Source: Chthoniobacteraceae bacterium (GTDB taxonomy: Bacteria; Verrucomicrobiota; Verrucomicrobiia; Chthoniobacterales; Chthoniobacteraceae). From it: a stretch of 22,191 nucleotides of DNA. The stretch spans positions 1 through 22,191 of the forward strand of contig JANNXQ010000089.1 of the NCBI GenBank assembly GCA_031409655.1. Reading direction: 5' to 3'. Made by a program: the position numbers. Below, one piece after another: positions 12,001 through 15,000 of the stretch; within the stretch, counting starts at the first letter, position 1; each line of letters begins with the position of its first letter.

Positions 12001-15000
12001 CCAGCCCACCGACAACCTCGCCGGAGAACACTTGTGAGGAGGCCGCTCAGAACTCGAACGGAAACAACTGCTGGATTCGTTGACTGATAAGCCGGCGGCG
12101 TTCCTTGCTGACGATTCCTCGCCGCTCGCGCAGACCAGCCTTGGCGACGAAGTGCATTGCATCCACGCGGCAGAGCGTTTCCCAATCGAGCCCGTCAGCT
12201 CGATCGAGGATGACCTCCACCGGCTTCAAGTCGCGCTGCAACGGCCCGCGCAGGGTACGGCACAGCAGTACATTGATGCGATCAAAGGCCGGGTTGGCGA
12301 CGTGCTGGACGTTGGAGAAGATCACGCACGGATGCGGACCTTCGACCGGAAAATCATCCGTCCAGATTTCCCACGGACTCATCAGTCGCTCGCCTTGCCT
12401 CAGTGATTTTCAAACGCGGCCCAGTCATCCGCCTCGTAGGATTCCGCCAGCCGCCCCGGCTCGATGACCACCACGCTCGCATCCTTCACTGGAGTCAGTT
12501 CGACCACCACACCGGCGCGATTCTGCAGAGGGATCACCTCACCAGCCATCGCCTGATCGCAGACCGAGTCCAACTGCGCCCGTGCGTCGTCTGTGGTAAT
12601 CACTTTCATGGGCAAATGGTGCCACGAGGGGCTCGATAGCGCTACGTCACGGATGCACCGCAAAGCCAGCTCTCGGCATCGGTGGAAAACTCGCTAAAGG
12701 AACATCGCTCCATGACTCCATCCCGCCTGCGTTTCCACCTCGAAGCCACCGCCACCGGCACCCGTGCCCGCGCGGCGACGTTTCACACTTTGCACAATGA
12801 GGTGCGGACGCCGCTCTTCATGCCGGTGGGCACGCAGGCCACGGTAAAGGGCCAGCTCACGCAGGCGCTTGAAGACGCGGGGTCGCAGATCCTGCTCGCG
12901 AATACTTACCATCTCCTGCTGCGCCCGGGGCCCGAAGTGTTCCGGCGGCTGGGCGGGATTCACGAGTTCATGAGTTGGAAACGCTCGGTGCTCACGGATT
13001 CCGGTGGGTTTCAGATTTTCTCGCTGCCGCACTCGCGCTCGATGAGCGAGGCGGGCGCGGCCTTCCAAAGCTACGTGGACGGCCGCACGATCCTCCTGAG
13101 CCCGGAGCTGAGCATCGAGACGCAGAAGGCGATCGGCAGCGACATCATGATGGTGCTCGACCAGTGCATCCCTTCCACCGCGGATGAAGCGGCGGCGCGC
13201 GCGGCGCTCGAGATCACGCAGCGCTGGGCGGCGCGGAGTATGGCGGCGCGCGGCGATTCACCGCAGTCGATGTTTGCCATCGTGCAAGGCGCGCTCTTTC
13301 CGGAACTGCGGCGCGAGAGCGCGGCGGGGCTGTGCGAGATGCCGTTCGATGGCTTTGCGATCGGCGGGCTCGCGGTGGGCGAGGCGCGGAGTGAACGCGA
13401 GGACATGTGCGAATTCACCGCGCAACTCCTGCCCCACGATCGTCCGCGCTACCTCATGGGTGTGGGCACGCCGCTCGATATCCTCGAAGCCGTGCATCGC
13501 GGCGTGGACATGTTTGACTGCATCATCCCCACGCAAGTCGCGCAGCGCGGTGCGGCCTTCACTTCGCGCGGTTATCTCCAGCTCCGGCGCGGCGTATACA
13601 AATTCTCCGAAGACGCGCTCGATCCGCTCTGCGGGTGCCCGACCTGCGCCCGCTACTCCCGCGCCTATCTGCATCATCTCGCAAAGACCGGCGAGCACCT
13701 CGGCTGGCAGCTCCTCGGGCAGCACAATCTGCACTTCTACCACCAGCTCATGCGCGAGATCCGGCAGAGCATTTTTGAGGATCGCTTCCTCGATCTCTAT
13801 CGGGAAAAGCGCGCCTTTCTGCACGAGACGGATTGCGAAAATCCGGTCCACATGCAGAAGCCGAAGAAGCGCCTGGCATTTCATCTCGGCGACTACGAGG
13901 TGCATCGTGCGCCGGAAGGATTTTGCAGCATCCGCCAGATTTCTTCGGGCGAAATCATGCACTCGCGCACGCCGCCGATGGAGGAGGCGCAGCGCCTTTA
14001 CATCGGGCAGTCAAACCTCGCGGAGCGTCTGCGGGCGGAGGAGGAAAGTGCGCTCGTCATCTGGGACATCGGCCTCGGTGCGGCGACGAACGCGATGGCG
14101 GCGATTCACTGCTACGAAGCGCAGGCCGCTGACGGACCCGTGCGACCGATGCGCGTCGTGAGCTTTGAGAACGATCTCGATTCACTGCGACTCGCCCTCC
14201 GGCACAACCGCGAATTTACCTATCTGCGTCACAGCGGCCCAGCGGCGATCCTCGCGGCGGGCGAGTGGCAATCGCGCCCGTATCCGGGCCTGAGCTGGTC
14301 GCTGATGCACGGGGATTTTTCCGCGACGCTCGCCGCCGCGCCCGCGCCGCCGGACGTGATTTTCTTCGACATGTTTTCGATGAACAGCGCCGCCGAGCAG
14401 TGGACCCTCGCAGCCTTCCAGCGTCTCTTCGCCGCCTGCGAAGGCCGCGCCGCCGAACTCTTCACGTACACCTGCTCGACGGCGATCCGCGCCGCGCTGC
14501 TCGGTGCCGGCTTCCATCTCGCGAAGGGATGCAGCGTCGGCGCGAAGGACGAGACGACCATCGCCCTGACTCCAGCCGCACTGCCGAGCCGCCATAATCT
14601 GCTCGGCGAAGAGTGGCTCGGCCGCTGGGAGCGCTCGCACACGAAGATTCCGCCGGAGATCGAACCGGCGCAGCATGGCGCATTTGAGCAGATGATTCGG
14701 GAGCATGCGCAGTTTCGCAGCCGGTGAGTGCAGGTCGGAGAAAACGCCAAACCTCAAACTCCAAACTTCAAACACCAAACGAAGAGGCGCCGGCAGGTGG
14801 CGGTTGTTTGGAGTTTGGTGTTTAGCGTTTGAAGATTGGCGTTTTCTTCCGCCCTAAATTTTCCCTGTGAAGCCGAGTTCCATCCGGTAATCCCATTCAC
14901 ACCTCTCCCATGAACATCACCCGACGCACCGCCCTCCAACGCACCGCGATCCTCACCACCGGCGCTGCGCTGCACTCCTTCACCACTCTCCGCGCCGCCG

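Follow-up and report, generated by a model that had tools for sequence, protein, structure and literature searches.

To our knowledge, bacterial tRNA-guanine transglycosylase (Tgt) has been regarded as acting on the four GUN tRNAs alone, en route to queuosine. PreQ1, the base inserted by this enzyme, resembles the substrate base of the methyltransferase MnmC2 in having a primary aminomethyl group, and the two occupy the same position in tRNA. The latter methylates the aminomethyl amine of the wobble base, nm5(s2)U34, as described in passages of PMC13602947 and PMC9976899. The fused architecture considered here is already known: one sentence in Jaroch et al. (10.1101/2023.12.21.572861) names TGT and four other fusion partners of MnmC2, and that sentence gives neither a function, a motif change nor a paralog status. 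A literature search, with most subscription journals outside its coverage, listed no work on this clade of paralogs, on the altered motif or on RNA that contains methyl-preQ1. What is added is a hitherto uncharacterised Tgt subfamily, set apart by its own clade, its motif change and its status as an extra copy.

The logic proposed below, in which preQ1 is inserted and a partner N-methylates it, has a parallel in phages, where DpdA2 and DpdM, according to passages of 10.1101/2023.04.13.536721, make mdPreQ1 in DNA rather than RNA, with DpdM producing the methyl-preQ1. The components differ, however. In the same passages, DpdM is a DUF3109/YkgJ metal-binding protein with a CxxxCxxCC motif, unrelated to the Rossmann-type PF05430 domain of the present fusion, which rules out that the fused domain is a DpdM. 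DpdA is likewise far more divergent from the Tgt half (17% identity and Z 26.2 for 7ui4, compared to 44% and Z 50.1 for Tgt), and this distance, together with the lack of conserved DNA-modification neighbours, sets the fusion apart from the DpdA DNA transglycosylases.

The fusion gene and its two halves

The window, i.e. the whole stretch of DNA that was analysed, comprises 22,191 nucleotides of a Chthoniobacteraceae genome (contig JANNXQ010000089.1, assembly GCA_031409655.1). The names of homologues and the Tgt tree also point to a host of Chthoniobacterales type. An earlier note had described a single Tgt–MnmC2 fusion gene within it, and this description held: one open reading frame matches TIGR00430 over residues 13–368, above the cut-off (433.8 vs. 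306.75), as well as NF033855 and PF05430 (Table 1). The fusion is no assembly artefact, because all 120 closest homologues listed (74–100% identity, query included) carry both Pfam domains. In 82 of 107 fusions, the span linking the halves (residues 368–392) measures 25–26 residues. An AlphaFold model of the fusion, built from 40 sequences, reached a mean pLDDT of 90 and a pTM of 0.59, and a complex prediction of the Tgt domain with the methyltransferase domain scored 0.01, which was given no weight in either direction; a single-sequence model of the methyltransferase (pLDDT 40.7) was left unused.

Table 1. Features of the Tgt–methyltransferase fusion locus, in window positions
Feature	Position	Strand	Evidence
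Tgt–methyltransferase fusion gene (P0001), 671 aa	12712..14727	+	single ORF; profile matches; AlphaFold model
Shine-Dalgarno-like AAAGGA, 11 nt 5' of ATG	12696..12701	+	sequence
Variant Tgt domain, residues 1–368, TIM barrel with Zn subdomain	12712..13815	+	TIGR00430 433.8; 3unt Z 50.1
Asp96 (= Zymomonas catalytic Asp102)	12997..12999	+	alignment; invariant in 107 fusions
Asp150-Gln-Cys152 (= base-pocket Asp156 and Cys158)	13159..13167	+	alignment
GLAVGE, residues 219–224 (= Gly230-Leu231-Ala232-Val233-Gly234-Glu235), preQ1-type pocket	13366..13383	+	alignment
DCIIPTQVAQRG, residues 269–280: nucleophile Asp280 (= Asp269) kept; V282I, R286Q, R289Q, N290R	13516..13551	+	alignment
Zn site Cys307, Cys309, Cys312, His338	13630..13725	+	alignment, fusion conservation
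Linker	13816..13887	+	low pLDDT at 381–390
MnmC2-like class I SAM methyltransferase domain, residues 393–671	13888..14724	+	PF05430; 3vyw fold and profile
SAM motif I DIGLGAATN, residues 452–460	14065..14091	+	D452, G456, N460 in 53/53 Tgt-linked domains
DMFS, residues 553–556 (= DAFS in Aquifex, DGFA in E. coli MnmC2)	14368..14379	+	profile, alignment

A structure search with the model matched the Tgt half to Z. mobilis Tgt (3unt; Z 50.1, rmsd 1.8, 364 aligned residues, 44% identity), and the domain is 45% identical to canonical Tgt overall. It shares the fold and the catalytic, pocket, Zn and dimer residues of the bacterial preQ1-inserting enzymes (TIGR00430; Z. mobilis 1enu/1q2r, E. coli). 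In the alignment to the Zymomonas enzyme (1enu), D102, D156, D280, Q203, G230, L231, A232, V233, E235, C158 and the Zn ligands are unchanged, in agreement with the earlier claim that the catalytic aspartates, the preQ1-type pocket (Cys158, Val233) and the Zn site are kept; the dimer residues F92, Y330, H333 and E339 are retained as well. Across 107 fusions, the catalytic, pocket and Zn residues are invariant or nearly so, and L231, A232 and E235 are present in all 98 variant Tgts that were compared, Glu235 likewise counting as a residue of the preQ1-type pocket. The pocket rules applied (Leu231-Ala232, Cys158, Val233) are those given in passages of PMC5699537. An archaeosine Tgt was ruled out by the TIGR00432 score (144.7, below 350) and by Leu-Ala at 231–232 in place of a Val-Val preQ0 pocket. 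From the sequence, we infer that the preQ1-type base-exchange chemistry of the variant is preserved.

Arg286 and Arg289 of Zymomonas Tgt reportedly contact U35. Both of these arginines are replaced in the fusion, as had been claimed: DCIIPTQVAQRG stands where Zymomonas has DCVLPTRSGRNG, which amounts to R286 to Q275, R289 to Q278 and N290 to R279. The resulting Q-x-x-Q-R motif (Q275, Q278, R279) was recovered in 120 of the 120 closest homologues listed, all of them two-domain proteins, and R286 is missing both in these and in all 12 intact distant fusions. For the distant set, only the methyltransferase domain served as the query, and of the 13 hits of sufficient length one with a frameshift was left out; position 289 in this set is Gln in nine cases, Lys in two and Gly in one. 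Arginine at 286 or 289 is not among the common residues of the 98 variants, whereas 31 comparison Tgts have it in 30 and 29 cases, respectively; the presence of Gln289 in 96 of the 98 variants is partly by construction, the pattern behind many rows having demanded this residue.

Relative to the comparison Tgts, G69A, V282I, N304R, M240R, Y161S/P162T and C182S are fixed in the variants, Ser155-Thr156 of the fusion lying just after Asp150-Gln-Cys152 where Zymomonas has Tyr161-Pro162. Position 290 is changed to Arg in 60 variants, to Gln in 34 and to His in 4. Since 38 of the 98 thus lack Arg at this position, compensation by R290, which the earlier note had raised against its own proposal, is not general. 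K/R52, D267 and T285 are mostly retained in the variants, and R279 and R293 are new basic residues; Lys at 286 is seen in some canonical-type Tgts.

The methyltransferase half (residues 413–618) scores 68.6 against NF033855 in the whole protein and 71.2 as a domain alone, below the cut-off of 136. MnmC2 (Aquifex DUF752, 3vyw; the N-domain of E. coli MnmC; NF033855) is the best match in both fold (3vyw; Z 24.4, rmsd 3.0, 240 aligned residues) and profile (E 1.4e-27 to 3vyw). The motifs HS..EA, DxGxGxxxN, SFE, GDF, DxFS, W and TY are shared, and the SAM and active-site motifs are preserved throughout 53 domains linked to Tgt. Unlike MnmC2, the fused domain belongs to a subfamily of its own, and its partner is a variant Tgt, fused or adjacent, instead of MnmC1 or MnmL. 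The genome also encodes the stand-alone MnmC2-like protein (C275) that had been reported beside the canonical Tgt (C127). This protein is 36.6% identical to the fused domain and likewise falls below the NF033855 cut-off (72.1 vs. 136), and fixed differences, e.g. M416/F, Y430/H and F555/Y, separate the Tgt-linked domains from those of the stand-alone C275 type.

Distribution of the variant Tgt

In a quick tree with a midpoint root, the variant Tgts form a single clade (98 rows, SH-aLRT 100), separate from 31 other Tgts and not grouped with housekeeping Tgt. The hosts belong to Verrucomicrobiota, Bdellovibrionota and Myxococcota, which also make up most of the matches listed from a GTDB motif-only scan (at least 119 loci); named carriers among these matches are Archangium gephyra, Cystobacter fuscus and Myxococcus xanthus. 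The fusion was found in 19 of 71 Bdellovibrionota genomes and, with the window's own genome counted, in 2 of 121 genomes of a phylum sample. Within the window's family, canonical Tgt is present in all 41 genomes and a second Tgt in 25, consistent with the earlier observation that a part of the family has both.

The variant comes in addition to another Tgt and is associated with a methyltransferase, not with queA. All 50 carriers searched, which were drawn from the loci of the GTDB scan, have two or more Tgt matches, a few of which are fragmented. A second Tgt with both R286 and R289 was present in 27 of 27 genomes inspected; 28 copies were fetched, the last being a member of a third Tgt clade. 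Five clostridial genomes have an unrelated Tgt with Gln289 but with Arg286 kept, and the other Tgt has both arginines in each of them; with these five included, a Tgt with Gln289 was never the sole copy.

The canonical Tgt of the window's genome has the motif PTRLARNG. QueA, QueG and MnmG are present in this 94.9% complete genome, whose search gave no match over the respective cut-offs for QueC, QueF, YhhQ, MnmM, MnmL or MnmC1. A role of the fusion as a substitute for a missing queuosine pathway was ruled out, as 77 of 80 genomes have QueA and 5 of 5 checked have QueG. The presence of QueF is not linked to that of the fusion (13 of 24 carriers in the family vs. 6 of 16 non-carriers). Variants are conserved as much as or more than canonical Tgt in eight of nine genome pairs and are therefore not decaying copies, a possibility that the invariant catalytic residues also rule out. 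Mobile-element cargo was rejected as well, as no match was found in viral contigs (by motif) or plasmids and the fusion gene has a GC content of 65% compared to 63% for the genome.

Linkage of the variant Tgt to the methyltransferase

Eighty loci of the motif scan were retrieved with their flanks, four of which were cut by contig ends, leaving 76 that could be evaluated. The methyltransferase is fused in 64 of these, directly downstream in seven and 3.7 kb away in one, i.e. fused or nearby in 72; the remaining four comprise two loci of the clostridial type and two variants without a methyltransferase in the locus. The earlier statement that all copies are fused therefore applies to close relatives, whereas Myxococcales often have two genes and some variants are without an adjacent methyltransferase. 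The two M. xanthus genes overlap at the stop of the first, Tgt, and the probable start of the second, the methyltransferase.

Among 71 Myxococcales genomes, the methyltransferase was found in 36 of 37 variant-bearing genomes vs. none of 34 others, though such co-occurrence counts overstate the linkage because related genomes are not independent. These genomes were classed by profile score and not by motif (at least 522 bits, or a fragmented gene, for the variant; no more than 489 bits for canonical Tgt). Six pairs lie 10–15 kb apart or on separate contigs. In the one variant-bearing genome without a methyltransferase, the variant ends 164 nt from the contig end, and one of the 34 other genomes has only a Tgt fragment.

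Either half also occurs by itself. Five variant Tgts, and two further copies in another genome, have no methyltransferase in the locus. Conversely, intact orphan methyltransferases of the fused type were found in genomes G065 and G066 (the latter on one contig), each with a single Tgt and no variant Tgt. In a methyltransferase tree, a quick tree only, these orphans nest among the fused enzymes on branches of ordinary length, and judging from their substitutions (pN 0.24–0.30 vs. pS 0.61–0.75) they are under purifying selection. Stand-alone members of the subfamily also occur in 6 of 52 fusion-free Bdellovibrionota and in the majority of family genomes without the fusion, and the subfamily can therefore do without the variant Tgt. 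A separate MnmC2-like match was found in 16 of 24 family carriers (one carrier not inspected) vs. 12 of 16 non-carriers; two of these 12 are the orphans of G065 and G066. The coupling of base exchange and methylation suggested in the earlier note is hence favoured by pairs that are fused, overlapping, or 10–15 kb apart yet co-occurring, and is weakened by the halves that sometimes stand alone.

Apart from the methyltransferase, clustering of the flanks of the 80 loci gave no conserved neighbour, as had been noted, and no defence or DNA-metabolism neighbours were among the clustered flanks. The upstream Dus-like gene and PemK pair had no match in any fetched locus. tRNA genes near the loci are scattered and unrelated and no Rfam family was found in the window, and the RNA target can therefore not be read from the context; a search of 16 sources for riboswitches and one for sigma-70-like promoters likewise gave no match. 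In one raw-read run, the M. xanthus locus was covered, with no dip at the gene junction and an approximately 2:1 sense bias, which is weak because the next gene, on the opposite strand, has no matching bias.

A proposed activity and its alternatives

As a preQ1-type Tgt is tied here to an aminomethyl methylase, the simplest reading is insertion followed by N-methylation. The Tgt domain would first exchange guanine in an anticodon-like loop for preQ1. Its changed ribose-34/phosphate-35 side (G69A, V282I, no R286, R289Q, N290R/Q, N304R) may shift or relax the U35 rule. Given that canonical Tgt and QueA are kept and that the face beside nucleotide 35 differs, a target other than the GUN tRNAs is more likely, probably a G34 tRNA other than those for Tyr, His, Asp and Asn, or another loop. 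Canonical Tgt, QueA and QueG would still make queuosine. In a second step, by analogy to MnmC2, the methyltransferase domain would add a methyl group from SAM to the 7-aminomethyl amine, giving 7-(methylamino)methyl-7-deazaguanosine, or methyl-preQ1; a possible variant is methylation of the free base before insertion. In the host of the present fusion, preQ1 would come from salvage, which is proposed because its genome shows no QueC or QueF.

That the variant Tgt acts on another RNA target, as the earlier note put forward, is plausible from its residues. For the proposal as a whole, i.e. insertion of preQ1 at a loop G, probably off the U33-G34-U35 set, and N-methylation by the partner to methyl-preQ1, we see an even chance. 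More tentative is a version in which preQ1 enters G34 of non-queuosine tRNAs (e.g. Phe, Ile, Cys, Ser-GCU) or another RNA loop and is then capped as methyl-preQ1.

The alternative that survives best, though it appears rather unlikely, is a cassette of independent wobble enzymes, in which an ordinary MnmC2 converts nm5(s2)U34 to mnm5(s2)U34 beside a retargeted preQ1 Tgt whose product stays unmethylated. The best structural and profile match to Aquifex MnmC2 and the intact motifs are in line with this, as are the variant Tgts that persist without a methyltransferase and the mention of TGT among several MnmC2 fusion partners in the sentence by Jaroch et al. The orphans of G065 and G066 are the only MnmC2-like matches in their genomes. 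Carriers among the Opitutales, like most of those among the Myxococcales, have the linked enzyme as their sole MnmC2-like gene, and nearly all of these carriers have MnmG. In many carriers, MnmG is accompanied by no further MnmC2 and no MnmM, nor, in five tested, by MnmL. Genuine nm5U methylases are probably found within the fused-type subfamily, and nm5U methylation may be a function of the fused enzyme as well.

A cassette does not readily explain the Myxococcales pattern described above with its six unlinked pairs, nor the persistence of the fusion beside other nm5U methylases, namely an MnmC2 over the cut-off in three genomes, MnmM in three (the only ones of 80 with MnmM) and an MnmL-like radical SAM/MnmC2 pair in one. 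Since 78 of 81 Opitutales genomes are without such a methyltransferase, the fused one does not serve a routine requirement in this group. The residues that distinguish Tgt-linked domains from the C275 type and the domain score under the MnmC2 cut-off also speak against the cassette.

It is improbable that both steps take place on the normal GUN tRNAs, with U35 read via R290, R304 and K/R52 and methyl-preQ1 made as a cheaper competitor of queuosine on part of these tRNAs or in certain conditions. The overall identity to canonical Tgt, above the equivalog cut-off, would be compatible with this, together with the largely kept K/R52, D267 and T285 and the newly basic R279 and R293, and orphan methyltransferases would be accounted for as partners of canonical Tgt. 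The Gln or His at position 290 in so many variants argues against it, however, as do the retention of QueA and the finding that a Gln289 Tgt is never alone, the clostridial partners keeping both arginines in every case.

Improbable as well, finally, is that no tRNA exchange occurs and that the variant is an accessory or RNA-presenting subunit (QTRT2-like, maybe as a heterodimer with canonical Tgt) or has a non-RNA substrate (DNA as for DpdA, protein as for Cap10): canonical Tgt is always alongside, the dimer residues are kept and enzymes of the Tgt fold that act on DNA or on protein are known (7ui4, 9ntn), but QTRT2, according to passages of PMC5699537, is without the active-site Asp whereas all catalytic residues are invariant here, the Z score of 50.1 to bacterial Tgt far exceeds those to DpdA (26.2) and Cap10 (19.5), and neither defence or DNA-metabolism neighbours nor viral-contig or plasmid matches were found.

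Methyl-preQ1, a 7-deazaguanine nucleoside, was found reported only in phage DNA, and its occurrence in RNA would be new. If insertion followed by N-methylation is correct, a widespread paralog tied to an amine methyltransferase would supply a novel nucleoside in RNA along with a novel specificity of Tgt, and a Tgt with a different loop rule could serve for orthogonal labelling of RNA at chosen sites. Myxococcus xanthus, which carries the pair as a two-gene unit, is a ready test organism. The variant proteins are labelled queuine tRNA-ribosyltransferase despite the canonical copy alongside, which is an annotation error.

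preQ1 supply in the host and its family

The host genome encodes Tgt, QueA and QueG, but a whole-genome search for QueC and QueF, which belong to preQ1 synthesis, and for YhhQ returned none of the three. QueF was likewise not found in 20 of the 39 other family genomes. These negative searches imply that preQ1, the base inserted by Tgt, would be salvaged through a putative transporter in the host and in the family genomes that lack QueF.

Distribution of variant and other Tgt clades

Two or three copies of the variant-clade Tgt are carried by some genomes (G059, on C5 and C25; G236, on C220, C159 and C122). 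In two others (locus L181 in G066, L186 in G065) the Tgt portion is cleanly lost and the fused-type methyltransferase is retained alone, which offers natural test cases for the stand-alone substrate of this enzyme. Three loci labelled Akkermansia (L056), Polynucleobacter (L070) and Klebsiella (L103) are probably mislabelled or derive from mixed bins; in the Tgt tree, which placed the first two, L056 lies beside an Opitutaceae sequence and L070 beside an Eisenbacteria sequence.

A third, unfused Tgt clade was observed in Bdellovibrionota (L138, L203, L205, L207, L209, L211, L213, L215, and further L217, L219, L222, L224, L226, L228, L230, L232); those of these genomes that were inspected also encode a Tgt of canonical type. 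Its members read PTRYARNG, PTRYARSA or PTKFARGG, with DMSDC in some, and inspection of the sequences showed that the catalytic residues are retained and that some copies lack Zn cysteines. In Clostridia (L010, L041, L247-L250), a second Tgt reads PLRNAQHG, with Arg286 retained and Gln at position 289; these proteins fall apart from the variant clade of the fusion, and a queA-type canonical Tgt is also present in 5 of 5 clostridial genomes.

Surroundings of the fusion

The toxin-antitoxin-like pair is inserted between the fusion and the Dus-like gene, and a paralog of the toxin (40% identical) lies on C117 of the same genome. The Dus-like gene is the second Dus of this genome and does not adjoin the fusion in other loci.

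Features of the window around the fusion
Feature	Position	Strand	Remarks
TPR protein, then exosortase gene	6489-10009		PF09721 (exosortase)
Dus-family tRNA dihydrouridine synthase-like gene	10844-12037	+	under all Dus equivalog cut-offs
PemK/MazF-like toxin and small upstream antitoxin-like frame	12047-12382 and 12400-12609	-	toxin: PF02452, 22.9 bits, just below cut-off
Short imperfect repeats	14750-14850		intergenic

The remaining genes encode flagellin, Maf, GcvH/T, DAHP synthase and Pta. The short repeats, of the type CTCAAACTCCAAACTTCAAACACCAAAC opposite its complement GTTTGGAGTTTGGTGTTTAGCGTTTGAAG, also occur in similar intergenic stretches and are possibly REP-like elements.
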